Positions 6,208-42,013 of a stretch of DNA of 42,013 bases are shown piece by piece. Location: the IMG/VR virus record IMGVR_UViG_3300025009_000208; one strand, written 5' to 3'. The position numbers were made by a program, and so were the translations under genes. Position 1 is the stretch's first letter; each line of letters starts with the position of its first letter. The stretch comes from a virus. Under the pieces are notes generated by a model. The model had not been told where the DNA came from, did no database searches, and saw only the letters and a program-made list of their open reading frames with translations.

Positions 6208-7089
6208 ATGATTAGATCAATCGGTTCGTCATTACTAGCAAAAGCAGGAACAGGTAGTCTTACCCGTAAAAAGGATGAGATGAGAATAACGAAACCTGAA
6301 GTTCCGGGCAAAGGAGCTGTGGGAACAGCAGAACGCAATTTGGTTCAAGAAACCAATATTACTCCAACAGCACCAGGATCAGAGAAAGTCATCAGGTCAG
6401 CACCTGGAATAGAGTCGGCTTCTTTGCCTGGGGTTGCAGGGGTTGCACCATCAAATGTGCCATTAGTAGCAGGAATTGGATCTCCGGGTGGAGCACCAGC
6501 AGGAGGAGCACAGGGAAATCAACCCATGTTCCAAACCAATAACGCAGGTGGAGCACCGGCATCAGCACCTGGGCAAGCAGGGCGACAAGCCACAGTAGGA
6601 GCTTCAACAGGAGCACCTATGGGTGCGGTTGCAACAACTAAAGCTGCAAGAGCAGCAGAGGCAGCCAAAGCAGCAGAAGCTGCTAGGTCTGCTGAAATGA
6701 TGCCAATGGGTTATCAAGCTCCTAGGGCACAAGATGTTGTGGGAAGTTTCTGGCCTGGTATTGCCAATTTCGGTAGTAGAGTTTCTGCAGAAGGCGAAGG
6801 TGGTAAGAATATAGAAAAAAATTTTGGTCAAGCGTTTTGGGGAACAGTTGGTAACGTTGGATCAAAACTTGGGATTATATCTCCGGCAGCTAATGCCAAG
6901 ATGCAATCCTATGCAACAAATCCGGCAGTTACCAAGAGTGGAGTAGGTTCAATTTCCCAACCGGGAAAGAATTTACAAGCTATTGTTAATTCCCCTGTGG
7001 CTCAAAATATTGGTAGTGCGTTGAGAAGTGTAACCCAAGCAGCCAAAAATACAGTTAGCAAGTTAAGAAGCAAAATTTTTGGTAGATAA
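6208..7089 (+). CDS. Ala/Gly/Pro/Ser-rich low-complexity protein (probable virion or ejection protein)
   Basis: Strong SD (GGGAGGTGA) 8 nt upstream of ATG at 6208. The 293-aa product is largely low-complexity (APGSEK..., AKAARAAEAAKAAEAARSAE). Confidence 0.5.
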   Translation: MIRSIGSSLLAKAGTGSLTRKKDEMRITKPEVPGKGAVGTAERNLVQETNITPTAPGSEKVIRSAPGIESASLPGVAGVAPSNVPLVAGIGSPGGAPAGGAQGNQPMFQTNNAGGAPASAPGQAGRQATVGASTGAPMGAVATTKAARAAEAAKAAEAARSAEMMPMGYQAPRAQDVVGSFWPGIANFGSRVSAEGEGGKNIEKNFGQAFWGTVGNVGSKLGIISPAANAKMQSYATNPAVTKSGVGSISQPGKNLQAIVNSPVAQNIGSALRSVTQAAKNTVSKLRSKIFGR

Positions 7090-11935: not shown

Positions 11936-12132
11936 TGAAAGAAAACAAAATAAGATTCGCATTTTATGCTTTTATAGGAATATTCGGATTTTTATTGCTT
12001 ATTGTTGATACAACTCCAGGGCACAGATTGACAGATCATCTTGGTTTCTTCAAAGAAAATCTTGACGCAGTAGAAGGAGTCATCTTTATATTCTTTTCAG
12101 GATTTGAAATAGGGAAGCTGAAGCAAAAATGA
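11935..12132 (+). CDS. Small membrane protein
   Basis: TAATG overlap with the previous gene. 65 aa with FAFYAFIGIFGFLLLIV and VIFIFFSGF. Confidence 0.55.
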   Translation: MKENKIRFAFYAFIGIFGFLLLIVDTTPGHRLTDHLGFFKENLDAVEGVIFIFFSGFEIGKLKQK

Positions 12133-12464
12133 GTGATCCATCACAATTAAAAGCACAAAGAGAGGCTATGGAAAAGCAGCGTTTTGGTTTTACTCGTGCT
12201 GAAGTAATTGCAGCCAAAGGTAATAAATGTGCCATACCACTTCAATACCCTGGAGATTTTCATGAAGGTGATCTTGTTATTGATCATATCAAGGGTGGGG
12301 GTAGGCATGACACCGAGATGGGAATGTTTGTCCAGGGTAAAACTCGCAGCATGAGTAATCTTCGGGTGCTTTGTAGGCGACATGCAGGAATGATAGATAG
12401 ACTAGACTTTACAAAAGGAATTGGTCATAATACTAAGGGTAATCCTAATAACCCATCACAATGA
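12129..12464 (+). CDS. HNH-like endonuclease
   Basis: GDLVIDHIKGGG ... SNLRVLCRRHAG, a His ... Asn ... His arrangement. ATGA overlap with the previous gene. Confidence 0.5.
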   Translation: MSDPSQLKAQREAMEKQRFGFTRAEVIAAKGNKCAIPLQYPGDFHEGDLVIDHIKGGGRHDTEMGMFVQGKTRSMSNLRVLCRRHAGMIDRLDFTKGIGHNTKGNPNNPSQ

Positions 12465-18397: not shown

Positions 18398-18430
18398 ATA
18401 CTACACTATGAATTATTAAATGTCAATAGG
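18398..18430 (-). promoter_or_regulatory. Leftward promoter CCTATTGACA-N11-ATAGTGTAGTAT (TTGACA-N17-TAGTAT)
   Basis: Reverse strand has TTGACA at 18426-18421 and TAGTAT at 18403-18398. It shares the extended motif with the promoter at 22597-22629. Confidence 0.55.
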
Positions 18431-18812
18431 GGAATTGATGAGTAATAACACCATTAACTATTGCATTTTTTGCAATAGAGTCCATACTTTGTATATGAAA
18501 AGAAAATATTATAATGCCCTGAAAATAATAAGGAGAGATGATTATACCTGCCAAGACTGCAAAAAAGCGTTTGAATTGAATCAGTTATTGGTTCATCACA
18601 TAGACAAAAACCCAAGCAATAATTCTGATTCAAATTTGATTACCCTCTGTCAATATTGCCACAAGGCACGACATGGACTTCTTGCTGGTAAAAGAGAAGA
18701 TGTTGCTGAAATGAGAAGTATGGGACTAACACTTCAAGAAATTGGGGATGTCTTAGGAGTTACTCATCAAAGAGTTCAACAGATAGATGCCAGAAATAGG
18801 AAACTGACATAG
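18420..18812 (+). CDS. HNH endonuclease fused to a sigma70-region-4-like HTH
   Basis: CIFCN...CQDCKK...LLVHHIDKNPSNNSDSNLITLCQYCHKARHG, then MRSMGLTLQEIGDVLGVTHQRVQQIDARNRKL. It lies on the opposite strand to the surrounding arm. Confidence 0.75.
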   Translation: MSIGELMSNNTINYCIFCNRVHTLYMKRKYYNALKIIRRDDYTCQDCKKAFELNQLLVHHIDKNPSNNSDSNLITLCQYCHKARHGLLAGKREDVAEMRSMGLTLQEIGDVLGVTHQRVQQIDARNRKLT

Positions 18813-20292: not shown

Positions 20293-20955
20293 TTAGCCCT
20301 GGGAGGAATTAGACTTATCCCCTAAATTTAATAACCGTTCTTGTCTTTGAGTTCTTAAATTGTATGTTCTTTGTGGTAATACCTCGTTCAGTATTTTGAG
20401 TGAATCTTTGTTTGAGTAATAGAGTTTGAAGAAAATTTGAAGTTTCATCACATCCAAGTATTTTAGTGTTTTCTTTTTGCCGTCATAATCAATACACCAA
20501 GCATCGGGATTGACCAGATTTATGTAGTGAAAAAGTTCATCCCTCCATAAAACCTCACAAACCTTGTCTATCAATACCCAACCTTTTTGGTTTTGCTTTA
20601 TTCTTGGTGACTTGTTACCCTTTTCCAAATCTTCTAAAATATAAACACCGCAATCTCCTATTCTTCCAATGTCGTATTTGATGTATTCTTCTAATTTAGA
20701 TTCTGGTATTACTAGAAATCTATGAGTAAACAAACCTAAAGCACCGTTAAACTGGCTTGTTAATCTATCAAAAGTATCATATTCCGTCTTTATTTCAAAA
20801 TAAGTGAAGGAATCTTTATCTAAAATAACAAAATCAGGTCTTAAACTACCACCAAAAGAAGTAAATTCAAATTGTTGGAAATTACCGTTACCTTCAAAAA
20901 CTTTAGCCAAAACTTCCTTATAATACTTTTCGTCTTTTTTAATTATATCTGCCAT
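20293..20955 (-). CDS. MmcB-like PD-(D/E)XK nuclease-fold protein
   Basis: RPDFVILDKDSFTYFEIKTEYDTFDRLTSQ...FLVIPESKL shows D-x13-E-x-K spacing, as in PD-(D/E)XK enzymes of the MmcB type. Its start codon shares one base with the tnpA-like stop. Confidence 0.5.
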   Translation of the reverse strand: MADIIKKDEKYYKEVLAKVFEGNGNFQQFEFTSFGGSLRPDFVILDKDSFTYFEIKTEYDTFDRLTSQFNGALGLFTHRFLVIPESKLEEYIKYDIGRIGDCGVYILEDLEKGNKSPRIKQNQKGWVLIDKVCEVLWRDELFHYINLVNPDAWCIDYDGKKKTLKYLDVMKLQIFFKLYYSNKDSLKILNEVLPQRTYNLRTQRQERLLNLGDKSNSSQG

Positions 20956-21500
20956 TAAAATAACCTCCCTTGGGTGAAATCACCAATAGTCTGGTGCTTA
21001 TTCCCATAAACATTAAATTGAAAAACATCCTTACCTTGTTGCTCTAAAATGTAGCGTTTCACCGCATCCTGTGATACGTGACCAGCACTACCAATGTAAT
21101 ATCCTCTTGCCCATAGGAAAGGAAACTTTTTGTAATGTATTCGGTAGCCAAGATAATTTAGGTCTAAAAATGCCTGTCTTAATCTTCGTGAAGTATTGCC
21201 TTTAATCTTCCTCACTATCTCGTAGGGTGTATGGGTAGGTAAGGCAGAAACAAATAAGTGAATGTGGTCTGGCATTACTTCCAATGCCAACATTTCTAAA
21301 TTCAATTCTTTACACTGTTCCCCGATAATTTGCTTTAGAAAATCTGCTACCTTACCCACCAGTAATTTCTTCCGATATTTTGGTATCCAGACAATGTGGT
21401 AATTGATATTGTGTTTACAATGGCTACCACTTTTGACACTAGATATTTTGACTTGAATATCGTAGGTTTTAGGATTAAAGTGTGGGTATTGGTTAAGCAT
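20955..21500 (-). CDS. tnpA: IS200/IS605-type Y1 HUH transposase homolog (TnpA-like)
   Basis: NYHIVWIPKYRKKLL; HUH motif in MPDHIHLFV; C-terminal ARGYYIGSAG and catalytic-Tyr helix AVKRYILEQQ. Confidence 0.85.
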   Translation of the reverse strand: MLNQYPHFNPKTYDIQVKISSVKSGSHCKHNINYHIVWIPKYRKKLLVGKVADFLKQIIGEQCKELNLEMLALEVMPDHIHLFVSALPTHTPYEIVRKIKGNTSRRLRQAFLDLNYLGYRIHYKKFPFLWARGYYIGSAGHVSQDAVKRYILEQQGKDVFQFNVYGNKHQTIGDFTQGRLF

Positions 21501-22596: not shown

Positions 22597-22629
22597 ATAT
22601 TACACTATAGATACCTATTTGTCAATAGG
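22597..22629 (-). promoter_or_regulatory. Leftward promoter CCTATTGACA-N11-ATAGTGTAATAT (TTGACA-N17-TAATAT)
   Basis: Reverse strand has TTGACA at 22625-22620 and TAATAT at 22602-22597. The ATG codons at 22595 and 22589 follow immediately. Confidence 0.55.
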
Positions 22630-22994
22630 ATTCTGATTAAACCTGAATCATATTTCCGGTGGCAAGATGGACAAAGCATGATATAGTTCTCTCTATCTTT
22701 AGTATATTTCTTGCCATGTATCAGGGCATATTCAAATCTTTTCGGTTTCCGTAATGTTATCCCGGCTGCATTTTTTCTCGGATAAATACAATCAGGATTC
22801 TCACAATGGGTTGCTCTTTTCCAACGATACCGGATGTAAGTATGCAAACTCGTGTAGGTAATATTGTTTCCTTTCCACCTTGCACTTTTCTCACCCGATT
22901 TGCCCACCATCCAGGGAGCACCTGTCCTTTTATGTGCTTCACTCATTTTTTTACGAGTCGTTTTTGAATGTTTAGTATGAATCCTTCTCGCCAT
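22605..22994 (-). CDS. HNH endonuclease
   Basis: THCENPDC...EYALIHGKKYTKDRENYIMLCPSCHRKYD. Confidence 0.6.
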   Translation of the reverse strand: MARRIHTKHSKTTRKKMSEAHKRTGAPWMVGKSGEKSARWKGNNITYTSLHTYIRYRWKRATHCENPDCIYPRKNAAGITLRKPKRFEYALIHGKKYTKDRENYIMLCPSCHRKYDSGLIRILLTNRYL

Positions 22995-23695: not shown

Positions 23696-24132
23696 AGTAG
23701 TTTGAATTTTAGTAAATACTTTTTGTTAAATCGTGGGCTACATTTTCCACATGATAATTTTCTTTTTCTGTTGTAATGGCTAATATCTCCGCAGTTTTTA
23801 CAGGTCGCTATATACTTATATTTTGGTTTTAATACATTATTTGGATACAATCTTTGACCATCACACCCGATTGATATAGCCTTTTGTTTCCATTCGTTTC
23901 CATGATGTATTCCTTTCGGTAGTAAGGCGTGGGCTATTTCGTGAAGTATTGTATTTTTAACTCTTGCTCCGTCATTTAATAGTGTTAGTTCTCTTGAGAG
24001 TGTTATTTTCTTTTTTGAATAATGGCAACACCCGAAACGCCTTACCGAATAGTCAAACTCAAATGACCAATCAGTCAAGTTGTGCAGTTTCATCAGATCA
24101 TGGGCTAGTTTTATAGTGTCCTTAATTCTCAT
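23692..24132 (-). CDS. SprT-like zinc metalloprotease with C-terminal zinc ribbon
   Basis: HEIAHALLP...HHGNEW (HExxH) plus CKNCG...CGKC. I chose ATG at 24132. The track start at 24147 is a GTG that lies inside the TATAAT box. Confidence 0.7.
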   Translation of the reverse strand: MRIKDTIKLAHDLMKLHNLTDWSFEFDYSVRRFGCCHYSKKKITLSRELTLLNDGARVKNTILHEIAHALLPKGIHHGNEWKQKAISIGCDGQRLYPNNVLKPKYKYIATCKNCGDISHYNRKRKLSCGKCSPRFNKKYLLKFKLL

Positions 24133-24138
24133 AATTTT

Positions 24139-24167
24139 ATTATACACCTATTGTCAAGTATTAACAA
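24139..24167 (-). promoter_or_regulatory. Leftward promoter TTGTTA-N17-TATAAT, 6 nt upstream of the ATG
   Basis: Reverse strand reads TTGTTAatacttgacaataggtgTATAATaaaattATG. No SD. Confidence 0.55.
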
Positions 24168-24228
24168 TTATTGAAGTGTATTGTCTTTATTCTCGGTTAT
24201 AATTATTGCTATGTCAATAGTCATTTAC

Positions 24229-24272
24229 TTGCACCGGGATTGTATAAGTATTGCTCCGGGCATTGTAATGTC
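24229..24272. repeat. Two tandem 22-nt direct repeats (operator- or iteron-like)
   Basis: TTGCACCGGGATTGTATAAGTA and TTGCTCCGGGCATTGTAATGTC, followed by a third CCGGC. Confidence 0.6.
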
Positions 24273-24312
24273 CCGGCTTCGTTTATATCCTTAGTAATTG
24301 CTATGTCTTACC

Positions 24313-24660
24313 CCCTTGATCATGATCATGACCTTGATCTATGTCTTAGCCTTAGCTCATGCCCTTGATCAATGCCTTAGCCTATGCCTTGACCTATGAT
24401 CATGACCTTGATCTTAGTTAATAACATGACCAATGGCATAGCCTTGATACTGTATAGTCCCCATAGTCATGTCTTAGACTTAGCACTTAGCCTAAGGCAT
24501 TGCCAATGCTATGACCTTGATCATGATCATAGCTATAGCTAAGCCTTAGCTATGACTATGATCTATACCATGACCATGACCATGATCATGACCATGATAT
24601 ATACCATGATCAGTGCAAGGCTATGGCTTAGGCTTGACCTTGACCAATGGCTTAGGCTTT
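24313..24660. repeat. Hexanucleotide-periodic, palindrome-dense non-coding block
   Basis: Runs of 6-nt words: CCTTGA TCATGA TCATGA CCTTGA TCTATG TCTTAG CCTTAG ... CCATGA CCATGA CCATGA TCATGA CCATGA. I counted 11 GATC and 13 CATG. Stops occur in all frames. Confidence 0.8.
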
Positions 24661-24810
24661 GCGTTTCCAATAATCACAGCTAGAGGGTAGGTATAGCTCA
24701 ATGCTATGCCCATGCATTGCCGTATTATGTCATTACCTTCCCAAACCCAGGGCAGTATCAATCCCCAAGGCTATGCTCATCCCCCATGTTCAAGGCTAAG
24801 GCTTTTCTCA

Positions 24811-24846
24811 TCTAGTTGACATGGGCATTACCTAAGTCAATACTAA
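24811..24846 (+). promoter_or_regulatory. 13-mer promoter motif TCTAGTTGACATG plus weak -10 (ATACTA/TACTAA) just upstream of the first rightward gene
   Basis: TTGACA at 24816-24821, -10 candidates at 24840-24846, ATG at 24851, no SD. Confidence 0.5.
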
Positions 24847-24850
24847 GTCT

Positions 24851-25411
24851 ATGCCAATGCCTAAACCCATATATAAGTCTTTGCCTGTATCTTTGCGTGA
24901 GGAAATAGAAGAATCAGTTAAGAAGGTAGGGGCTTTTGAAACCGCAACTAAGTATGCTAAGAAGGCAGGGATGAGTGCTTGGGGACTTTATCACAACCTA
25001 AATAAGAAAGTTAAGAGTGGGGAGATTGTAACTAATCGGGTAGTGCAACCGTATAATGCAAAACCTGTTAAGAAGGCTCAGAAATTATCAGACACCGAAA
25101 AGCAGTTCCTGGAAGATCTCAAAACCGGGAAGAAAGATATATCTGAAATTAGTCGGATGGTTGCCGTAAAGGTTTTTGAGAAGATGCTTAAATATCCGGA
25201 TGACTTCAAGTTCTACGACTTCTACCAAGCCCAATTACTTCAGCTTAAACAGGAGGAGGCTAAGAGTAAAAACACTTTGGCAATGGAACTTATTAATCGC
25301 TTATTTAACGGAAAGCTTCCCCCAACACATTGTCCTAATTGCGGGTTTGAAATAATCAAAATGGAAACGACTCAGGCGATTGAGGAAGGGGAGATTGTCA
25401 AAGATGATTAA
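24851..25411 (+). CDS. Probable small terminase subunit
   Basis: It sits immediately upstream of and overlapping terL. N-terminal HTH-like segment (FETATKYAKKAGMSAWGLYHNL), coiled middle, C-terminal CPNCG. Confidence 0.4.
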   Translation: MPMPKPIYKSLPVSLREEIEESVKKVGAFETATKYAKKAGMSAWGLYHNLNKKVKSGEIVTNRVVQPYNAKPVKKAQKLSDTEKQFLEDLKTGKKDISEISRMVAVKVFEKMLKYPDDFKFYDFYQAQLLQLKQEEAKSKNTLAMELINRLFNGKLPPTHCPNCGFEIIKMETTQAIEEGEIVKDD

Positions 25412-26969
25412 CCCATATGATATTCAGACTGCTATAACCACTCGGGATGTTGTTGCTTTTGCGGAGGATGTTCTCGGGATGCACCTTCACGAAGGTCAGA
25501 AGTATTGGCTAAGAAATTCTACTAAACCAATCAATGTCCTAAAACCTGCTAACCAATGGGGAAAGACTACGGCTGAAGCAATTAAACATGTCTTTCACGC
25601 AGTAACTAAGCCTCAACTTGACCGCTTTGACATGACTCTGGAGGATAGGATGCGGTTTGATTACAGGACTTTGAATGTGGGTAAAACCTACGAGATTGCC
25701 CGGGGAGTTTTGGAACAGGCTGTGGACATTACAGAGGGAAAGTATCTTCTACCTACAGGGCAATATAACAAATCTTTACTCCGGGGGTGGGCTATTAAAG
25801 AGGTTTGGGATGCTCCCCCGAAACTTCCCCAGATCGCTTGGTGGAATCACTCCCGGACTTTGATCAGATCTTTTGACGGACTTGGGGAAGCGTTCAAAAG
25901 ACTACGACTCGCATTTATCTCGGCTGATGAGTGCGGAGATATTCCCGATCTAAAGCTTTTCTTAAACGGAACTATGCTCCCTCGTCTTTTCTTCTTTCAG
26001 GGTTCGGTAGATTTAGTTGGGACTTCCCAACCCAAAGGTGTTGAGTATGAGGAGATTGCGGAGGATGCGGAGGAAGATCGGGATCAGTATTTTATTATAT
26101 CCGCAAATACGAATCCGGAGATGGCTTCAGTTTATACGAATGAATTTATGCCGGGAGATTCTATCAGAAAAATTGAAGCGATTGCAGATCCGGAACTTCG
26201 TAAGCAAATCATTTACGGACAATATGTGGATTGGGCAAAGCATTTATATTCTTGGGAGGAAATTGCTCAGATGTTTAGAAGCGATTTAGAATATGACCAA
26301 GAATCGGGCTTTTGTGAAGAACCGGAAGAAAACGGATACTACGCTTTTGCTACAGACCTGGCTGCAAGTGAAGATGAAACTTCCGTTACTTGCATTAGAT
26401 ATAATTTAAGGACTAAACTTGAAGATGGAAAGTTCAAACAACATCCCCACCGGGTTGTTTTTCATAAAGCCTGGAAGGGTGAGTCCCTACCACTCTCGGT
26501 TCAATACGAGATGATTAAGGAAATGTTCAACAAATTCCACCGGGTTTCTCCCGCAAGAACCAAGTTCATTTATGATGCAGGAAGTTTGGGAGGAAAAAAT
26601 GCGGAGGATGCTTTCAAAGAATTACATGGTTATCCTTTCCCACCAAAAGGTAGGGGTTACGCAGAAATAAAAGCTGAGGGAATGGGTAAAGTTAAAGAGG
26701 TTTTGGGTAGAGAAAGGGACTTTATAGTTGGGGAAAATGGTCTGATAGTTGACAAGAATAAAGATTGGGGAGGCATAAAAGCATCTCCAAAACTTACCGG
26801 ACTACGCAGACAACTTGAAATTGCTAGTAAGGATGATGTTAAAATAAAGAATGACCAGTTCTCAAGTTTTATGATGGCTCTACATTACATTGAAATGAGA
26901 GCACCGAAGTCAGGATTTTACAAAGCTGTAGATTTTAATATAATGAAAGGAACTGTAGTAAATTATTAA
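25404..26969 (+). CDS. terL: Terminase large subunit
   Basis: P-loop-like NQWGKTTAEA, Walker B-like FISADECGDI, and a C-terminal nuclease-size domain. ATG at 25404 (track start is TTG at 25380). Confidence 0.75.
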   Translation: MINPYDIQTAITTRDVVAFAEDVLGMHLHEGQKYWLRNSTKPINVLKPANQWGKTTAEAIKHVFHAVTKPQLDRFDMTLEDRMRFDYRTLNVGKTYEIARGVLEQAVDITEGKYLLPTGQYNKSLLRGWAIKEVWDAPPKLPQIAWWNHSRTLIRSFDGLGEAFKRLRLAFISADECGDIPDLKLFLNGTMLPRLFFFQGSVDLVGTSQPKGVEYEEIAEDAEEDRDQYFIISANTNPEMASVYTNEFMPGDSIRKIEAIADPELRKQIIYGQYVDWAKHLYSWEEIAQMFRSDLEYDQESGFCEEPEENGYYAFATDLAASEDETSVTCIRYNLRTKLEDGKFKQHPHRVVFHKAWKGESLPLSVQYEMIKEMFNKFHRVSPARTKFIYDAGSLGGKNAEDAFKELHGYPFPPKGRGYAEIKAEGMGKVKEVLGRERDFIVGENGLIVDKNKDWGGIKASPKLTGLRRQLEIASKDDVKIKNDQFSSFMMALHYIEMRAPKSGFYKAVDFNIMKGTVVNY

Positions 26970-36160: not shown

Positions 36161-36427
36161 ATGTTAAGACCTAAATCAAAAAAAGAAATCTTGCCTTTTA
36201 AGGCAGTATTTGGCAAACGAAAGTTTGTCTTTCCTATGGAATATGCTACTGAGAATGTGGATGGTAAGAAAGGAATGTTGATTTCCATCAACAACAAAAA
36301 CACATTCGTTCCATGTGGTGAGCCTGTTGACCTTACCTGGGAGGTATGGTCTTTGTTGAAAAACATAGGCAGGGTTGCCCGGATTGTAAATGTAGCAATT
36401 GACGAAGATGACAAAAAGAAATTATGA
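36161..36427 (+). CDS. Hypothetical protein
   Basis: The track ORF starts at GTG 36086. I chose ATG at 36161, downstream of the hairpin GCCCTA-GCCTTA-TAGGGC (36127-36144). The start is uncertain. Confidence 0.35.
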   Translation: MLRPKSKKEILPFKAVFGKRKFVFPMEYATENVDGKKGMLISINNKNTFVPCGEPVDLTWEVWSLLKNIGRVARIVNVAIDEDDKKKL

Positions 36428-37493
36428 GGAGAACCTCAATTGGTATGGTTGGACTACGCCATTTTCAGGCTACGGAATAGTAAGCCTTGAATATATGGTT
36501 GCCCTTGAGAGGCTTACAGGTAAAATTTCTGTGGGTTGGCAGAGGAGAGAACCGGATAATTCTTCAGAATGGAGGATCTTATCCACAGAACAACAGAACT
36601 TAATTCATTACAAACCTTTTGATAAAGCTAGACTTGGGATAATTAAAACAACTCCAGAGCTTTTTCATAACAATATTTCAGATATTAAGATCGGATATAC
36701 AATGGTTGAAAATAGTCGGGTAGGTAAGAATTGGGTTGACAAATGTATGGCTATGGATGCCCTATTTGTTCCTTCTAAATACTTAGTGGATGTGTTCAAA
36801 GAAAGCGGATTTACAAAACCAATCTATACAGTTAAACAGGGAATCAATCCTGAACTTTTTAAGTATGTAGATCGCAGGAGAGTTGAAAGGAAACCCCGAG
36901 AGAAATTCATATTTGCTACTGCCGGATGGCTTGATGAAAGAAAGAATTGGCAAGAAATGGTAACTGCTTTTACTTCAGAATTTGATAATAACGAGCCTGT
37001 AGAATTATGGCTCAAAAACTCCAATAATATGTTCGGTTACGAACAACCTGCAGACGAAAGGGTAAAACTAATTGACGAACTTCTTTCTTTTGAGCAGATG
37101 CAGATCTTCTACAAGAATATAGATTGCTTCCTTTTCTGTTCCAGAGCTGAGGGTGCGGGTATGCCCGGGAGAGAAGCTATGGCAACAGGGCTTCCTGTAA
37201 TCATTACCAATTGGTCTGGTATGGCTGATGTGGCAGATTCCCGATACAACTATCCCCTTGATCCTGTGGCAATTGACATGCCTGATGCCAGGATGCAGGA
37301 GGAACAACCAGGATTCCAGGCAAGAATTAGTGTTGAGGAGCTTATGTATTGGATGCGTTACATTTACGAGCACCAGGATGAAGCCTATGAAAAGGGTAAA
37401 TTAGCCTCAGCTTGGATGCACAGGGATTGGAATTGGGAAGTTTGTGCAGAAGATATGCTTGACACTTTGGTTAAAAACTTTGATTATAAATAA
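36408..37493 (+). CDS. GT-B glycosyltransferase (GT4/GT1-like)
   Basis: CFLFCSRAEGAGMPGREAMATGLPVIITNWSGMAD is a typical E-x7-E region of retaining GT4 enzymes. ATG at 36408 (track start is TTG at 36399). Confidence 0.75.
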   Translation: MTKRNYEENLNWYGWTTPFSGYGIVSLEYMVALERLTGKISVGWQRREPDNSSEWRILSTEQQNLIHYKPFDKARLGIIKTTPELFHNNISDIKIGYTMVENSRVGKNWVDKCMAMDALFVPSKYLVDVFKESGFTKPIYTVKQGINPELFKYVDRRRVERKPREKFIFATAGWLDERKNWQEMVTAFTSEFDNNEPVELWLKNSNNMFGYEQPADERVKLIDELLSFEQMQIFYKNIDCFLFCSRAEGAGMPGREAMATGLPVIITNWSGMADVADSRYNYPLDPVAIDMPDARMQEEQPGFQARISVEELMYWMRYIYEHQDEAYEKGKLASAWMHRDWNWEVCAEDMLDTLVKNFDYK

Positions 37494-37495
37494 GT

Positions 37496-38107
37496 ATGGA
37501 TGAATTTATTGCATGGAATGATTGGTGGAGTCTAAAATATCGCTTCAAGATGGGCGAGGGCGTGAGATATTTCTCAACTAAAATTGCTCTTAATTTGTTT
37601 CACTTCAGAGGAGGCACTAATATAGTTGAAACAGGCACGATTAGAATGGCTGACGATATGAATGGTGGAGGCTATTCTACCCTTCTTTACGGAGATTACG
37701 CACAACACTATGACAAGCACTTTTGGACTGTTGATATTCTTCCGGAGGCAATAGAACTTTCAAAGAAAGAAACGGAAGGGTTCAATAAGAATACAAATTT
37801 CGTTACAAGTGATTCGGTTGAGTTTCTCAAGAACTTCCCGGAGAAAATTGACCTTCTTTATTTGGATTCAATGGATTGCCCAGAGAATGACGAGGCTGAT
37901 TCTCCTCATCTAATAGCTTCACAAGAACACCAGTTAAATGAAATCAAAGCTGCATGGGACAAATTAACTGATAAATCTGTAATCCTTTTGGATGATAACA
38001 ATTTTACAAACGGAGGAAAGTGTAAGCTTTCGGTTCAGTTCTTAATAGATAACGGATGGACACCTTTGATGGCAGATAAACAGGTTCTATTTATTAAAAA
38101 TGCTTAA
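37496..38107 (+). CDS. Class I SAM-dependent methyltransferase
   Basis: NIVETGTIRM...GGGYST and IDLLYLDSMD match the motif I and post-I pattern of small-molecule/sugar O-methyltransferases. Confidence 0.6.
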   Translation: MDEFIAWNDWWSLKYRFKMGEGVRYFSTKIALNLFHFRGGTNIVETGTIRMADDMNGGGYSTLLYGDYAQHYDKHFWTVDILPEAIELSKKETEGFNKNTNFVTSDSVEFLKNFPEKIDLLYLDSMDCPENDEADSPHLIASQEHQLNEIKAAWDKLTDKSVILLDDNNFTNGGKCKLSVQFLIDNGWTPLMADKQVLFIKNA

Positions 38108-38654
38108 ACTAAATTTGGGTTGTTGGAAAAGGAAGTTGCCGAAATTTACAAATGTAGATATTTGTAACCTACCTGGCGTTGATTATGTCAGGAATATTGA
38201 CGACCTTTCCTGTTTTGATGATGCAACTGTGGAACTAATTTATGCCAGTCATTGTTTTGAATACTTTGATCGTGAAAAAGGTGCCCATGTATTAAAGGAG
38301 TGGAAAAGAGTTTTAGCTTCAGGAGGAACGCTTCGGATTGCAGTTCCTGATTTTGAAAAGATTATCAAAGCTTATAAATTCTTTGGAGATATAAATAGAA
38401 CTCTTGGATTGTTATATGGAAAGATGCAGATTGATACAGTTAATGGTAGTAAAACCATATATCACAAGACAGTTTATGACTTTGATTCCTTAAAAGAAAT
38501 GCTTGAAGCTGCCGGATTTGTAAATGTTAGAAGGTATGATTGGAAGAAAACTATTCATAAAGATTATGACGACCATTCTCAAGCTTATATTCCGCACATG
38601 GATAAAGAGCATGGGGTGTTGATGAGCTTAAATGTGGAGGCAGACAAACCATGA
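38100..38654 (+). CDS. SAM-dependent methyltransferase (type 11-like)
   Basis: LNLGCWKRKLPKFTNVDI ... ELIYASHCFEYF ... VLASGGTLRIAVPDF. Confidence 0.65.
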   Translation: MLKLNLGCWKRKLPKFTNVDICNLPGVDYVRNIDDLSCFDDATVELIYASHCFEYFDREKGAHVLKEWKRVLASGGTLRIAVPDFEKIIKAYKFFGDINRTLGLLYGKMQIDTVNGSKTIYHKTVYDFDSLKEMLEAAGFVNVRRYDWKKTIHKDYDDHSQAYIPHMDKEHGVLMSLNVEADKP

Positions 38655-39655
38655 AAATACTTTATCTATCGTGCCATTCAATTTTAGAATATGACGAAAC
38701 CAAGCTTTTAACTGAGCTTGGACATGAGGTTTTCAGTCATGGAGCATATGTTAATCCTCAAGCTCCGCAGGATATTAAACGACCTGCAACTGATGCTAAA
38801 TATAACGAACATATGGCAGTTCTTGCTACCCGATTTTCAAAAGACAAGCTAAGTGAGGAGATGATTGAATGGGCTGATACTATTATTGTGCAGCATGTGC
38901 CTGAATGGATTATGAATAATTGGGATCAGATCAAGCACAAAAATGTAATTTGGAGAACAATTGGACAGTCAACAGCAGCCACAGAAATTCAACTTGCTGA
39001 CTACCGCTATGAAGGGATGAAGATTGTCAGGTATTCTCCAAAGGAAAAGAATATTCAAATGAATTTGGGAGAAGATGCCATGATTCGTTTCTACAAAGAT
39101 CCGGAGGAATACAAAGATTGGAATGGAAATGTGGAAAGGGTTATTACTCTTGGTCAAGCCATTCAAAAGCGTGGTGCTTTCTGCAATTACCAGGCATTTG
39201 ATGCTGCAACTGCACCTTATCCAAGAATTGTGTTTGGAGCTGATAATGATGACTTGGGTGCTATGTGGGGTGGGCAGTTAAGCTATGAAGATTTGAAGCG
39301 TGAACTTCGGGATAACCGAGTTTTCCTTTATACAGGGACTCAACCTGCTTCTTATACGCTTGGATTTATTGAAGCTATGATGACCGGAATACCCATTGTT
39401 GCGGTTGGTAACGATATTGGAAATAGTCTTTTTAAGCAAGAACAAAATACCTACGAGATCCCGGAAATAATAGATAGTGGTCTTAGTGGCTTTGTTAGTG
39501 ATAGCATAGAAGTGTTGAGTGATAAAGTTGGACAGCTTTTGAAAGATGAACCCCTGAGAAAACGCATCTCAGAGGCGGGTAGGGCTAGAGCCATAGAGCT
39601 TTTTGGCAAGGAAACAATTAAGAAACAATGGGAAACCTTTTTGAATAATTTATAA
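38651..39655 (+). CDS. GT-B glycosyltransferase
   Basis: RVFLYTGTQPASYTLGFIEAMMTGIPIVAVGND is a C-terminal nucleotide-sugar-binding-type region. Confidence 0.6.
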   Translation: MKILYLSCHSILEYDETKLLTELGHEVFSHGAYVNPQAPQDIKRPATDAKYNEHMAVLATRFSKDKLSEEMIEWADTIIVQHVPEWIMNNWDQIKHKNVIWRTIGQSTAATEIQLADYRYEGMKIVRYSPKEKNIQMNLGEDAMIRFYKDPEEYKDWNGNVERVITLGQAIQKRGAFCNYQAFDAATAPYPRIVFGADNDDLGAMWGGQLSYEDLKRELRDNRVFLYTGTQPASYTLGFIEAMMTGIPIVAVGNDIGNSLFKQEQNTYEIPEIIDSGLSGFVSDSIEVLSDKVGQLLKDEPLRKRISEAGRARAIELFGKETIKKQWETFLNNL

Positions 39656-39657
39656 AT

Positions 39658-40578
39658 ATGTTATCAATCTGCACCAGTATCTATAGGGAAACCGACAGCC
39701 TAGAGGTATTTGTCAGAACAGTATTCGGGAACGCTTCAACTCCTTCAGAAATAGAAATTATTGTAGCTAATGATGAAACCTCACCAGCAACCGCAGATCT
39801 TCTTAGCAGACTAGCTTTAGAGTTTCCCAACCTTCGTTCTTTTAGTAGAACTAAAACCCAAAGGATTAAGTTTTTAAGAAATCGTGTTGAATTTTATAAG
39901 AGAGAAAATATTTTTAGTCCAGAGGAATTGACAAATATGGATGAGAGAATAAACCAATATGAAAGCGGGGAGCTTGAAACCCTATGGTTTCCCCCGGGAG
40001 TTCTATATAACAAAGCAGCTAAGATGGCGAGTGGGGATGTTCTTCTTTTAGTCCCGGCTGATTATATTTGTTTCGGAGATTTGAGTAAAATTTACGAAGC
40101 TTTCAAGAATATTCCTGGAGATATTGTTGGACATTTTGATTGGCTTGACACAACCTCTCTTGATCCAATGCCTGATATTCTAAATATTGTGCGAAAGACC
40201 AAACCTAAAGATGAATTTCACGCAGTTACAAATGATTGGTTACAACAGGCTTTTGCCAATAATGTTGGTCATGTTTGGCAACAACATGGTATGAGAATGG
40301 TCAAGAAGGATGTATTTGAAAAAGCAGGGTGCTATGATGGAAGGTGGTTTACAAGGTCGTGGAATGAAGATAGTCTTAATAGAAGGATGGAGCAATTCGC
40401 AAATGCTCACAGGCTTATGGAACTAGATCAAACTAAATCATTTAATCCTTACTTCGGAACTCTGAGGGGTAAATCCTGGAGAGAACCAAACTACCTCTGT
40501 TCTTTTTATTCAGGTTTACCCGAAATTCATAGTCAGTTTTTGAGTAGAATCCAATTCTATTTAGAAAGGGAAGCATGA
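39658..40578 (+). CDS. GT-A (family 2-like) glycosyltransferase
   Basis: LSICTSIYRETDSLEVFVRTV...EIEIIVANDETS is a typical GT2 N-terminus. Confidence 0.6.
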   Translation: MLSICTSIYRETDSLEVFVRTVFGNASTPSEIEIIVANDETSPATADLLSRLALEFPNLRSFSRTKTQRIKFLRNRVEFYKRENIFSPEELTNMDERINQYESGELETLWFPPGVLYNKAAKMASGDVLLLVPADYICFGDLSKIYEAFKNIPGDIVGHFDWLDTTSLDPMPDILNIVRKTKPKDEFHAVTNDWLQQAFANNVGHVWQQHGMRMVKKDVFEKAGCYDGRWFTRSWNEDSLNRRMEQFANAHRLMELDQTKSFNPYFGTLRGKSWREPNYLCSFYSGLPEIHSQFLSRIQFYLEREA

Positions 40579-41690
40579 AAACAATTCAAATGTTCAACGC
40601 TAAAATATCTCACAATGTAGCCCCCGCATTGTCTGAACTTATGGCGGGTGGATTTATCGGGGAAGGCGTAAAGGTTGTGGAATTTACTAAGAAACTTGAA
40701 AGCTACTTCGGCTGTAAAAACTTATTGCTTCTTAATAGCTGCACAAGTGCAATTACTCTTGCAGCCAGGTTAATTGGACTCAAGCCAGGAGATGAAGTCA
40801 TTTCTACCCCTTTCACAATGATCGCTACAAGCGTGGCTCTGATGCCTTTTGGAGTTAAGATTGTTTGGGCTGATATTAACGAAACGGATGTGAATATCTC
40901 TGTGGATAGCGTGAGGAAAAGTATTACCCCCAATACAAAAGCCATTGTTGTAGTGCATGTTGGGGGGTTGCCTTGCAATATGGAGGGATTGTCCAAACTT
41001 GGGCTTCCAATTATATCTGATTGTGCACATGCGATTGACACTTGCTATCAGGGTGAGCACATTTCCAAATGGGCTGATTACTCGTGCTTTTCCTTCCAGG
41101 CAATCAAGCAATTGAATACCGGAGATGGGGGAGCACTTGTGATCAGAGATGATGCTCAATTTGCCCGGGCTGAGAAGCTTAAATGGTTTGGTATGAGCAG
41201 GAAAGTCCCGGAGGGAATGACCAGACTTGAGCATCAAATGACTGCGGATGTGCCTGAGTGGGGTTATAAATTCCATATGAATGATATTGCAGCTACAATC
41301 GGATTAGCAAATTTTGAGTGCCTGGATGATGTAACAAGTAGTAATGTGGATAACGCAGAGTTTTACATGAAAGAATTACAGGGAATCAAAGGTATAACTC
41401 TGCCCACAATTGAGAAAGATGCTTTACCTGATTGGTGGGGATTCTATATTTTTACAGATGAAAGACCAAAATTGATGGATTTTCTTAATAAGAAAGGAAT
41501 CATCACAACTCCAATGTGGAGAAGAAATGACCAATATTCTGCTTTCAAAGAGGACTTCCCGAAGCTACTTCCAAATATGACCGCCCTTCAAAATAAGATT
41601 CTATTTATTCCTTCGGGCTGGTGGCTAACTAAAAAAGACCGAGAATATATAGTAGAATGTATTAAGGAATTTTCAAATGCGAATCAATAA
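40575..41690 (+). CDS. DegT/DnrJ/EryC1/StrS-family PLP-dependent sugar aminotransferase
   Basis: GDEVISTPFT..., ISDCAHA, and FSFQAIKQLNTGDGGAL (PLP Lys context). Confidence 0.85.
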   Translation: MKTIQMFNAKISHNVAPALSELMAGGFIGEGVKVVEFTKKLESYFGCKNLLLLNSCTSAITLAARLIGLKPGDEVISTPFTMIATSVALMPFGVKIVWADINETDVNISVDSVRKSITPNTKAIVVVHVGGLPCNMEGLSKLGLPIISDCAHAIDTCYQGEHISKWADYSCFSFQAIKQLNTGDGGALVIRDDAQFARAEKLKWFGMSRKVPEGMTRLEHQMTADVPEWGYKFHMNDIAATIGLANFECLDDVTSSNVDNAEFYMKELQGIKGITLPTIEKDALPDWWGFYIFTDERPKLMDFLNKKGIITTPMWRRNDQYSAFKEDFPKLLPNMTALQNKILFIPSGWWLTKKDREYIVECIKEFSNANQ

Positions 41691-42013
41691 AGATACCAGA
41701 GGAAAAGGTTTTTACGATTTATTCCCAAGAGAATGTGGGCAGACAGATATTTCCTTCAGTTACCCTGGCACAATTCGTGCCTTCCATATGCACAAAATTA
41801 AGACAGAATGGTTTTTCTGTGCTGGTGGAATTATTAGGCTTGTTTTAACAGATCCTTTTGAGGAGTTTTTCATGGAGAGAGGAGATATGGTTGAAATCAA
41901 ACCTGGCAGATGGCATGGTTTTCAGATATTGGGAGATGAACTTGGGGTAATGCTTGAGCACTCTACACATAAATATGAGATGGATAACCCTGACGATTTT
42001 CGCAAACCTTATA
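41677..42013 (+). CDS. RmlC-like cupin sugar-nucleotide epimerase/isomerase, 5' portion (continues at 1-162)
   Basis: ATG at 41677 overlaps the aminotransferase end by 14 nt. DTRGKGF...ISFSYPGTIRAFHMH...IKPGRWHGF matches the cupin pattern of dTDP-4-dehydrorhamnose 3,5-epimerase-like enzymes. Confidence 0.7.
   Translation, partial: MRINKDTRGKGFYDLFPRECGQTDISFSYPGTIRAFHMHKIKTEWFFCAGGIIRLVLTDPFEEFFMERGDMVEIKPGRWHGFQILGDELGVMLEHSTHKYEMDNPDDFRKPY
41887..42013. repeat. Second copy of the 127-bp terminal overlap (identical to 1-127)
   Basis: Direct comparison of both ends. Confidence 0.95.

Follow-up and report, generated by a model that had tools for sequence, protein, structure and literature searches.

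A conserved, 6-bp-periodic block upstream of the presumed small-terminase gene of a groundwater phage as a candidate packaging region

Between the two divergent arms of a phage genome from Rifle groundwater lies a non-coding block that is built from 6-nt words and crowded with short palindromes. What could such a block do? The genome is complete (41,886 bp) and was analysed as one stretch of 42,013 nucleotides (IMG/VR record IMGVR_UViG_3300025009_000208; here called the window), which assembles as a circle with a k-mer overlap of 127 bp; many sister contigs are likewise circular. A sequence-only reading of the window had put forward three roles: a replication origin or methylation-sensed switch, a packaging recognition region upstream of the small-terminase gene, and a landing pad for a multimerising DNA-binding protein.

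For comparison we used ten relatives with an equivalent block (terS-terL nucleotide identity 68–76%); islands were compared in 12 genomes, among them L016, which has no hexamer array. The clade that carries the hexamer signature consists of phages from groundwater, landfill and sediment. The INPHARED phages yielded neither a DNA nor a TerL protein match, and the GTDB genomes yielded no TerL relative and no I1-I2 module (see below). A scan of IMG/VR with island I1 returned three already known relatives and three chance coding matches. When the region was approached from the left arm, via SSB-like homologues, none of the contigs retrieved extended to the block.

The repeat unit and its palindromes

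The periodic block spans approximately 24290–24662 (~370 bp) and consists of ~60 degenerate 6-bp words; word-like sequence continues at lower density past 24662, up to a promoter at 24816–24844. The chain of hexamers described in the sequence-only reading stood, while its extent (given as 24313–24660) and its unit (given as Y-C-W-T-R-R) had to be corrected: the unit is W-T-G-R-Y-C (equivalently T-R-R-Y-Y-W), as in ATGACC, ATGATC, TTGACC and TTAGCC. The periodicity is strict. Identity at lag 6, proposed there as a check, was 0.46–0.50 in the block versus 0.29 genome-wide, with lags 1–4 and 8–10 depleted. In a cyclic hidden Markov model, period 6 gave a log-likelihood of −3785, compared with −4492 for period 5, −4557 for period 7, −4550 for period 3 and −4919 for the null, and was ahead of periods 3, 5, 7 and 8 by more than 700 units. 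The repeat families found are built up from whole numbers of 6-nt units, at 60–80% identity, and the longest perfect tandem run comprises ~3–5 units.

A recount reproduced all the site numbers reported before: 11 GATC (24318–24608, within 294 bp), 13 CATG (24321–24605, with three further ones up to 24820), six TTGAT, the 12-nt palindrome TGATCATGATCA at 24317 and 24518 (201 bp apart), each within the 16-mer CCTTGATCATGATCAT (24314 and 24515), and the run of three CCATGA, one TCATGA and one CCATGA at 24568–24597. AGCTATAGCT is found at 24531. From the rest of the genome, 1.09 GATC and 0.67 CATG would be expected in the block, against the 11 and 13 observed (P=2e-8 and P=5e-13, respectively); the richest equal-sized windows elsewhere in the genome hold 6 and 5. 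TGATCA occurs 8 times versus 0.15 expected from the rest of the genome (P=6e-12), and the enrichment of the three palindromes in the block is 10- to 50-fold relative to the rest of the genome. TTGAT is weakly enriched (6 observed, 1.1 expected; maximum in other windows 5). The palindrome enrichments are not independent of each other but reflect one repeat, since CATG forms wherever two TGAYCA units meet in tandem, and a unit that has T as its Y contains GATC. TTGAT, which had been tied speculatively to a TnpA homologue of the IS200/IS605 family, is a by-product of CCTTGATC words and is not kept in the relatives; in L009, L011 and L013 the equivalent flank lacks an IS200-type TnpA although each of them carries the block, and the link was dropped. 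The block was likewise rejected as a target or end of an ISDra2-like element: TnpA is 2.8 kb away and found in the window phage only, and block-bearing relatives have no TnpA within 5 kb.

Stops are present in all six reading frames (4–21 per frame), in agreement with the earlier statement that every frame is closed, and phase slips occur as well; frame +1 of the window block, with 4 stops, is relatively open. Recoding of a stop codon to open a frame was dismissed, as TAA, TGA and TAG each end long ORFs in the window phage. Hexamer words are found elsewhere in IMG/VR in at least 120 contigs, and the periodic ones are unrelated, in-frame Gly-His/Gln coding repeats; given the phase slips and stops, a Gly-X coding array, (GGTCAN)n, was rejected for the block, the arrays of other viral contigs being phase-perfect inside ORFs. 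Microsatellite-like length polymorphism was looked for. L017 and L018, the same phage from other samples, proved 100% identical to the window over 2,061 bp including the block, and together with the shortness of the perfect runs this led us to reject a microsatellite or contingency locus. An iteron-type origin was rejected on the basis of the repeat lengths and identities given above and the lack of a recognised initiator gene.

The UAG, UGA and AUG triplets every 6 nt, and the one relatively open frame in each block, would suit a transcribed repeat RNA (a protein sponge or a TRAP-like target of NAG repeats) or small peptide ORFs. This explanation is barely credible, because neither a conserved promoter nor a conserved terminator that would serve the transcript emerged from the promoter scan, no frame is conserved (every frame of every block contains stops), the orientation of the words differs between genomes, and neither conserved structure nor covariation was found. 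The Rfam search gave no match; for RNA structure across I1-I2, a closing helix recurs with no covariation and z-scores of −2.7 to +0.9.

Layout of the intergenic region

The features of the region are listed from left to right, with window coordinates.

24139–24217, minus strand: candidate sigma-70-like leftward promoters from the promoter scan, TTGACA-17-GAGAAT (24217–24189) and TTGTTA-17-TATAAT (24167–24139)
24231–24290, unstranded: left-boundary region with three CCSGG (24234, 24256, 24272) and CGTTTATAT (24279–24287)
24309–24317, unstranded: island A, the C-rich boundary motif ACCCCCTT at the array start, CCYCCTT in relatives (alignment)
24313–24450, plus strand: left hexamer array, ~23 units (CCTTGA, TCATGA, TCTTAG, CCTTAG, CCTATG)
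24451–24460, unstranded: central island TGTATAGTCC between the two arrays, single-copy in the genome, recognisable in nine of the ten block-bearing relatives
24461–24610, plus strand: right hexamer array with the CCATGA-rich run (24568–24597), the second TGATCATGATCA (24518) and 5 GATC
24611–24622, unstranded: island R, CAGTGCAAGGCT, with the core AGTGCA/AGTGGC in the window, L008, L043, L002, L013, L020, L023 and L010
24623–24662, plus strand: short distal array (GGCTAT, GGCTTA, GGCTTG, ACCTTG, ACCAAT, GGCTTA)
24665–24701, unstranded: islands I0 (TTCCAAT, 24665–24671) and I1 (GGGTAGGTATAGCTCAA, 24685–24701), single-copy (alignments)
24729–24743, unstranded: island I2, GTCATTACCTTCCCA (alignment)
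24816–24844, plus strand: rightward promoter TTGACA-N17-AATACT, present in all relatives (promoter scan and alignment)
24851–25411, plus strand: gene of the presumed small terminase, 186 aa, overlapping the terL start
25380–26969, plus strand: large-terminase gene (phrog_2, E=3e-13)

The stretch with the leftward promoter candidates (~24130–24219) is the sole AT-rich part of the intergenic region (GC 0.22–0.23), and relatives have a 'cttgtcaata' motif in the corresponding place. These promoters would drive the early, left arm, which holds SprT-like, HNH, HTH_17 and SSB-like genes. In the left-boundary region, CCCG..TTTATAT recurs in L001, L013 and L043. Of the 11 GATC sites, 6 lie in the left array, which also has a higher-order repeat of 31 nt, and the eight TGATCA of the window fall into two groups (24317–24413 and 24518–24613) around the central island. 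The arrays stop 190 bp upstream of the terS-like ATG and ~150 bp upstream of the −35 element. At the rightward promoter, the spacer is made from each genome's own hexamer words, and between the end of the −10 element and the ATG there are 6 nt in the window (6–8 nt across genomes), which implies a leaderless mRNA. Downstream, the order is terS-like gene, terL, portal; the portal proteins of relatives gave weak matches to the Pfam family SPP1_portal.

Throughout the block the flexible pyrimidine-purine steps are enriched (z=+3.3) and AA/TT is depleted (z=−3.6). These properties fit recognition through many weak contacts, as in the helix-turn-helix ring of the SF6 small terminase, for which weak, low-specificity and cooperative recognition has been described (PMC4737164). 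The 186-aa protein would be the candidate for such binding in the window phage. Its model (AF2, pLDDT 66) shows an N-terminal bundle of three helices, predicted with confidence, and a long central helix. The protein and its homologues (n=31) have no match to a TerS family in Pfam or PHROGs; a PDB profile search of the protein gave nothing significant, and Foldseek returned insignificant helix-turn-helix proteins alone. Between the block vocabulary and the variable N-terminal domain of the protein no covariation was found beyond phylogeny (partial rho −0.06, P=0.61).

A binder of a different kind has to be considered, namely a multimerising phage or host regulator that coats the track and switches the divergent promoters independently of packaging; the 63-aa HTH_17/Xis-like protein, kept in the left arm of the window, L009, L011, L034 and L038, or a nucleoid protein would be candidates. 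Such an operator or architectural array would account for the location of the block between two divergent sigma-70-like promoters and for the extension of the words into the rightward-promoter spacer. Precedents exist in the P2 Cox boxes, in Fur boxes, readable as arrays of GATAAT hexamers, and in the direct and inverted WATCACW heptads of omega (pSM19035), a type of system that tolerates words independently of their orientation. The Fur and omega arrays resemble the block in their contiguous 6–7-bp units, their orientation tolerance and their position at promoters, but they comprise 3–10 units, whereas the window has ~60 units over ~370 bp, far beyond known operator arrays, and among the phage proteins none was recognised as Fur-like or ribbon-helix-helix. 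Moreover, the densest hexamer-word windows of the genome all fall within 24050–24850, with no similar cluster at any other promoter, and a regulator would leave the clustering of contig ends at two islands (see below) unexplained. We consider this explanation unlikely.

Conservation among relatives and contig ends

Comparison with the control regions of related phages, also suggested by the sequence-only reading, located an equivalent hexamer block of 270–420 bp at the same site in at least ten relatives, with lag-6 z-scores of 5–13. Unconstrained sites should be largely randomised at 68–76% identity, and the persisting block was therefore counted as conserved. The number of GATC per homologous block ranges from 0 to 13, with none in L009 and L013 and 2 in L010, all with equally periodic blocks; TGATCA is likewise absent from L009 and L013 and present 2–4 times in most other relatives. 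It follows that Dam control is not the conserved principle.

These counts bear directly on an oriC- or P1 oriR-like origin and/or a switch with SeqA/Dam-type methylation sensing. GATC clusters are carried by both E. coli oriC and P1 oriR (in the latter as GATC heptamers), and with 11 GATC in 294 bp the window is as dense in this site as oriC. The block also lies in the gap that separates divergent units, where the cumulative GC skew has its minimum, and an AT-rich stretch is close by (24130–24219). The skew minimum, however, coincides with the switch in gene orientation and is hence not independent evidence, the AT-rich stretch corresponds to the region of the leftward promoters, and GATC results from units of the TGATCA variant. 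The block itself has a GC content of 0.37–0.45 and is not AT-rich. No DnaA box is present in 24148–24850, AT-rich 13-mers and iterons of 15–22 bp are lacking, and no replication initiator, helicase, primase or Dam-type methylase was recognised among the phage genes. As a conserved role, the proposed origin or methylation switch is thus not supported, and we hold this explanation to be highly unlikely.

The relatives also differ in word orientation, with a TGACC:GGTCA ratio of 10:0 in the window and 0:14 in L020, which counts against a strictly oriented recognition code. In L016 the islands and their ~320-bp spacing are kept, with quite different repeats and no hexamer periodicity; the words are thus dispensable in at least one lineage. 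Islands I0/I1 are kept in 12 of 12 genomes, L016 included, and the spacing from the I1 start to I2 (the GGGTAGGTATAGCTCAA / TCATTACCTTCCCA pair) is 46 bp in 11 of 12 and 45 bp in L013. The distance from the central island to I1 is 214–218 bp in five of ten genomes, and that from island A to I1 varies between 288 and 374 bp.

Such findings would be expected of a passive spacer that holds islands and promoters ~300–400 bp apart, in which units are duplicated and lost within a narrow vocabulary that avoids restriction sites, A-tracts and curvature, spurious promoters and ORFs, and to which no word-specific protein binds. The variable array length, the reversal of the words from genome to genome and the different repeats of L016 agree with this explanation, as do the closure of all six frames, the strong depletion of AA/TT, the extreme genome-wide avoidance of six 4-bp palindromes and the lack of covariation between vocabulary and TerS. 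On the other hand, ten lineages at 68–76% nucleotide identity keep a strict 6-bp phase with the same class of unit, the perfect tandem runs are so short that slippage alone should not maintain the arrays, and the block is identical across independent samples. We judge a passive spacer decidedly unlikely.

Contig ends were considered in 17 relatives within ~1.1 kb upstream of terS, and in 8 of these they lie at the left boundary or the central island. On the left side of island A there are five, at distances of 9–34 nt (L002 and L008, 9 nt; L045, 13 nt; L016, 19 nt; L010, 34 nt), L002 and L008 starting at the identical homologous nucleotide, 9 nt 5' of CCTCCTT. Three contig starts (L022, L026 and L027) fall within 1 nt at TA|TAGTC in the central island. 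Instead of physical ends, these clusters could represent branch points of the assembly graph where mosaic segments meet.

A proposed packaging-initiation region and its known counterparts

Its position, bipartite layout, conservation in relatives and the clustering of contig ends at two islands lead us to favour packaging for the block. We infer, at somewhat under even probability, a bipartite pac-like loading region, comparable to pacL-pacC-pacR of SPP1 or the hexamers of P1, combined with upstream control DNA. Of the three roles suggested earlier, a packaging region upstream of the small-terminase gene is thus the best supported. Nucleoprotein would assemble on a region that has the block as its core and the divergent promoters for early (leftward) and late (rightward) expression on either side; initiation of pac-type packaging is the most likely role of the block. 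The two long W-T-G-R-Y-C arrays would offer a register-tolerant, flexible and A-tract-free track with many weak sites. An oligomeric DNA-binding protein may load onto this track, presumably the 186-aa helix-turn-helix protein, translationally coupled to TerL and the presumed TerS. The single-copy islands (the C-rich left boundary, TGTATAGTCC, AGTGCAAGGC and the I1/I2 pair) would provide specificity, asymmetry and a point of cutting or nucleation. As the words reach into the terS promoter spacer, the same binding would also set expression of the late operon, like SPP1 gp1 at pac/PL1. The proposed landing pad for a multimerising protein is compatible with packaging; it may also take another shape, for instance that of a regulator acting on the divergent promoters.

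Set against packaging are the circular assemblies, the alternative origin of the contig ends as branch points, the lack of a TerS family match, the missing covariation of the vocabulary, the reversal of word orientation between genomes and the absence of the words from L016.

The SPP1 pac site consists of pacL, pacC and pacR, is bound by the small terminase gp1 and overlaps the PL1/PL2 promoters and the start of gene 1 (PMC6316719). The predicted layout of the window is similar in that two array regions flank a central island at the start of a terS-terL-portal late operon, and recognition would follow the same logic of many weak contacts. As to an overlap with the late promoter, word-like sequence fills the promoter spacer in every genome, and the arrays end ~150 bp upstream of the −35 element. 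The differences are that the 186-aa protein has no sequence or family relation to gp1, and that SPP1 has a few boxes with intrinsically bent A-tracts, whereas the block is A-tract-free and 6-bp periodic. In P1, pac comprises 161 bp with seven TGATCA/G hexamers (HEX4 and HEX3) flanking IHF and cleavage sites (PMC10028697). Shared with the window are hexamer words including TGATCA (eight in the window) and an adjacent gene for the small terminase, presumed in the window; two clusters around a distinct centre would be a further parallel. Here, however, ~60 units are contiguous and phase-locked compared with seven dispersed ones in P1, the window block is intergenic whereas the P1 site lies inside pacA, and TGATCA/GATC is not kept in the relatives. 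The function of the P1 site depends on Dam methylation of the GATC sites in its hexamers, which does not fit homologous blocks with no GATC or hardly any, or a phage in which no Dam-type methylase was found.

The T7 sequence was checked and contains CCTAAAG 11 times in the first 340 bp, with TAAAG every 13 bp at 177–334, beside its terminal repeat and ahead of its first promoters. It shares with the window a non-coding array of short words (~160 bp or more), which in the window would likewise separate a packaging or concatemer junction from the first promoters, but T7 repeats a single well-defined heptamer every 13 bp instead of a degenerate 6-bp word, and it has defined direct terminal repeats and its terminase genes at the opposite end of the map. 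For a lambda-type cos site, the five contig ends to the left of island A are no more than suggestive; the window and many of its sisters assemble as circles.

Consequences for uncultivated phages

An unlikely though conceivable alternative to these models is an undescribed type of cis-element: an orientation-free track of ~60 degenerate, strictly 6-bp-phased units, rich in flexible steps, in which a phage protein that forms filaments or rings would recognise periodic shape and flexibility instead of a base code and so nucleate packaging or an early/late switch, with the short single-copy islands supplying position and polarity. Such a track would be an evolvable scaffold, in which units are gained, lost or inverted while the function stays. 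Should the track act as a loading pad whose periodic shape is recognised, small-terminase recognition through many weak contacts would be extended to an extreme and testable case.

The example of this phage illustrates that a striking cluster of GATC and CATG can arise as a by-product of a repeat unit rather than as a methylation signal. In uncultivated phages, the regions for packaging and control are hardly ever defined. In this clade, a conspicuous and easily recognised signature shows where the early module gives way to the late one, and probably also where packaging starts. If the hexamer track is such a loading pad, pac regions and genome polarity would be predictable directly from metagenomic sequence.

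Genome layout and the intergenic region

The ends of the window are exact duplicates (1–127 equals 41887–42013). This 127-bp duplication is an assembler k-mer overlap, so that the window represents a genome of 41,886 bp, assembled as a circle, whose start coordinate is arbitrary. A record identical to the window was found in a Rifle groundwater metagenome (SRR1658472, PRJNA268031), and the same TerS-like protein (the presumed small terminase encoded downstream of the hexamer block) was present on at least 23 contigs, 21 of which measure 20–50 kb. INPHARED and GTDB genomes yielded no relatives of the phage. The genome has two arms:

24851 onward: rightward structural arm with the 186-aa ORF, TerL (phrog_2), a portal-sized ORF, two ~900-aa proteins, the major head protein, a sugar-modification cluster and tail genes
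24147 down to ~13100: leftward arm with a SprT-like gene, HNH, HTH_17, an SSB-like gene, an IS200-type TnpA, a CHAP lysin and an Hjc-like nuclease

The sugar-modification genes within the structural arm (36399–41690 and 182–1923) encode a glycosyltransferase, a small methyltransferase, an aminotransferase and a nucleotide-sugar epimerase. The 42-kb genome carries as many as three genes for HNH-type endonucleases (22605–22994, −; 18420–18812, +; 12129–12464, +): two are supported by Pfam, one of which includes a NUMOD3 motif, and support for the third is limited to a weak PHROG match. The IS200/IS605-type Y1 transposase (20955–21500, −; Pfam Y1_Tnp, E = 1.5e-35) lies with 20293–20955 in the early arm. 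Three relatives (L009, L011 and L013) lack it in the corresponding 5 kb, and it therefore looks like a recent insertion in the lineage of the window. The speculative link between this transposase and the TTGAT pentamers of the block was rejected, the transposase being strain-specific and TTGAT a by-product of CCTTGATC words.

The intergenic region (24148–24850) holds hexamer arrays and short motifs, termed islands:

Left end, − strand: candidate leftward promoters within an AT-rich stretch
24231–24290: CCSGG-motif stretch with CGTTTATAT, between the leftward promoter and the array
24309–24317: island A, C-rich boundary ACCCCCTT
24313–24450: left array
24451–24460: central island TGTATAGTCC
24461–24610: right array
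24611–24622: island R CAGTGCAAGGCT
Between island R and TTCCAAT: short distal array
24665: TTCCAAT
24685–24701: island I1 GGGTAGGTATAGCTCAA
24729–24743: island I2 GTCATTACCTTCCCA
Between I2 and the rightward promoter: some words in opposite orientation
24816–24844, + strand: rightward promoter TTGACA-N17-AATACT, conserved at the same site in 11 relatives

In the 24231–24290 stretch, a span of 40 bp contains three CCSGG motifs, of which two read CCGGG(N)ATTGTA; at the matching site the relative L043 carries TGTCCCGGTGTTGTA twice. Genome-wide, CCGG occurs at twice the frequency predicted from composition. The islands are single-copy in the genome and conserved across relatives. In 11 of the 12 genomes I1 and I2 lie exactly 46 bp apart, with 25 variable nucleotides between them. 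A helix pairing I1 with I2 was often predicted, but it showed no covariation and no significant stability, and both islands were therefore treated as DNA sites. I1 superficially resembles the 5' end of a tRNA gene (an acceptor strand and then TAGCTCA); ARAGORN and Rfam gave no tRNA or RNA family at 24685–24743. For the block itself, a role as transcribed repeat RNA is very improbable.

In every genome, 6–8 nt separate the end of the −10 element of the rightward promoter from the ATG of the TerS-like gene, and no Shine-Dalgarno sequence precedes this gene in the window (24816–24853) or at the same site in 11 relatives, so that the late operon probably begins with a leaderless mRNA. The promoter spacer is made from the words of the respective genome (ATGACCTTGACC in both L043 and L023, ATGGTCTATGGTCATGGTC in L020). 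A regulator of the divergent promoters might use the block as its operator or as an architectural array, which we consider unlikely.

A six-base unit and its palindromes

The counts of the sequence-only reading were all reproduced, and three palindromes proved to be in excess over the rest of the genome: GATC (11 observed, 1.09 expected, P = 2e-8), CATG (13 against 0.67, P = 5e-13) and TGATCA (8 against 0.15, P = 6e-12), for which the maxima in equal-sized windows elsewhere were 6, 5 and 2, respectively. The proposed hexamer structure was likewise borne out by autocorrelation, the identity at lag 6 being 0.46–0.50 in the block versus 0.29 genome-wide; lags 1–4 were depleted and the lag-3 (coding) signal was absent from the block. 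When a cyclic hidden Markov model was trained on ten homologous blocks, the log-likelihood was −3785 for period 6, compared with −4492, −4557, −4550 and −4797 for periods 5, 7, 3 and 8 and −4919 for a composition-only model. The resulting unit is W(A.62/T.33)-T(.82)-G(.64)-R-Y-C(.65), with words such as ATGACC, ATGATC, TTGACC, TTAGCC and ATAGTC. In the register T-R-R-Y-Y-W the word density is 8.4 times that of the genome, and neighbouring matches are mostly 6 or 12 nt apart. CATG is formed where units ending in YCA meet units starting with TGA, and GATC is formed if Y is T; both enrichments are thus by-products of one tandem unit. Stops occur in all six frames (4–21 in the block of the window, at least one in every frame of every relative's block), and TAA, TGA and TAG each end long ORFs in the phage, which makes the block non-coding.

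Six palindromic 4-mers are nearly absent from the genome (1–41886): GTAC (0; 85–147 expected), GCGC (0), CGCG (0), GGCC (1, at 6752), TCGA (4) and ACGT (3). The other ten, GATC and CATG included, occur at 0.8–1.1 of expectation. This near-absence is strong restriction-site avoidance, a pattern indicative of a host with numerous restriction-modification systems of the 4-cutter type.

Conservation among relatives

Relatives (L001, L002, L003 (= L011), L008, L009, L010, L013-15, L016, L020-22, L023-27, L043-45) were found via TerL and the TerS-like protein in IMG/VR, JGI, ENA and Logan assemblies. Their terS–terL DNA is only 68–76% identical to that of the window, and a periodic block of 270–420 bp is present at the same position in ten distinct genomes (6-nt periodicity, z = 5.2–12.8). 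The arrays of the nearest relatives (L008, L043 and L002) are still collinear at 70–75% identity; in more distant ones the array alignment is lost and the vocabulary alone survives. The phage of the window was recovered from two other samples with 100% identity over 2,061 bp, block included. The block is thus no hypermutable microsatellite.

CATG numbers 9–22 in all ten blocks, and GATC varies from 0 (L009, L013) or 2 (L010) up to 13 (L003). By these counts GATC is not the selected feature of the block. The lack of GATC conservation and of origin features weakens the earlier proposal of a replication origin or methylation switch, which now appears quite improbable; no polymerase, primase, helicase, initiator or Dam-type methylase was recognised among the genes of the window. 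Word direction is strong within each genome and differs among genomes, the ratio TGACC:GGTCA being 10:0 in the window, 14:0 in L008 and L002, 0:14 in L020 and 4:4 in L010. In L016, whose TerS-like protein is 41% identical, the flanking islands are kept around a ~320-bp repeat-rich spacer of other words (CCTTTAG, CTTGCTAC) in which 6-nt periodicity is absent.

The L003/L011 block (L003 4990–5340) carries an extra 11-nt word, CTTGTAGGTGG(T), in at least six copies inside and beside the hexamer arrays; the N-terminus of its TerS-like protein is the most divergent among close relatives. Phase-perfect (GGTCAN)n or (GGYTAT)n arrays of 300–1000 nt were also seen inside ORFs of many unrelated viral contigs in IMG/VR (L049, L053, L055, L059, L064, L072, L094, L102, L123, L144, L154 and others), where the products are proteins of repeated Gly-His, Gly-Gln or Gly-Tyr dipeptides. 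Of these contigs, two share metagenomes with relatives of the phage.

The TerS-like protein and DNA packaging

The gene of the 186-aa protein is the first of the late operon and overlaps the start of TerL. An AlphaFold model gave a confident three-helix bundle (11–56), two more helices and a long helix (122–152); in a set of 31 homologues, variation is found in the N-terminal domain, and the rest is highly conserved. A variable N-terminal domain and helix bundle with a conserved remainder is the usual build of small terminases. Searches for TerS family, PDB sequence and fold matches gave none in support, and the assignment thus rests on position and architecture. Block vocabulary did not covary with the N-terminal domain when the conserved part served as phylogenetic control (partial rho −0.06, P = 0.61). 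This failed test, the aperiodic L016 spacer and the flips in word orientation favour a constrained passive spacer, its limited vocabulary stemming from unit turnover together with the avoidance of ORFs, promoters, curvature and sites for restriction enzymes; we regard this as rather improbable.

The best-supported reading, held tentatively and with less than even confidence, is that the block is a pac-type nucleoprotein assembly region and also upstream control DNA of the late promoter. Of the packaging role suggested in the sequence-only reading, the array, its conservation and its architecture are observed; a protein would bind the block, the DNA would be cut there and the promoter would be co-regulated. 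In SPP1, pacL and pacR are the regions bound by gp1, the intervening pacC is cut by gp2, and pac overlaps PL1/PL2 as well as the beginning of gene 1 (PMC6316719); in P1 the cut is flanked by HEX4 and HEX3 TGATCA/G hexamers (PMC10028697). The layout of the block matches these two best described bipartite pac sites. The SF6 small terminase recognises pac via many weak, poorly sequence-specific HTH contacts (PMC4737164), the kind of recognition that a long degenerate track would serve. Flexible pyrimidine-purine steps are enriched in the block (z = +3.3), AA/TT is depleted (z = −3.6) and A-tracts are absent.

Contig ends of relatives within ~1.1 kb upstream of terS (17 in total) are placed far from randomly. 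Five lie 9–34 nt left of island A: L002 and L008, from different JGI samples, both start exactly 9 nt before CCTCCTT, and L045, L016 and L010 (a 40.2-kb contig, near full genome length) start 13, 19 and 34 nt left of the island. Three others fall within 1 nt of one another in the central island, between TA and TAGTC (L022 from one phage, L026 and L027 from another). Real DNA termini or a preferred region of cleavage would fit these positions, which are no more than suggestive; recombination between strains present together, with the de Bruijn graph branching at conserved islands or mosaic boundaries, would explain them just as well.

A further precedent is the short-word array beside the packaging junction of T7 (11 copies of CCTAAAG; TAAAG every 13 bp at 177–334). 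Repeat-rich packaging and control regions are already known. The ~60 phase-locked, degenerate and orientation-free hexamers conserved across this clade are an unusual variant of them, with a putative function.
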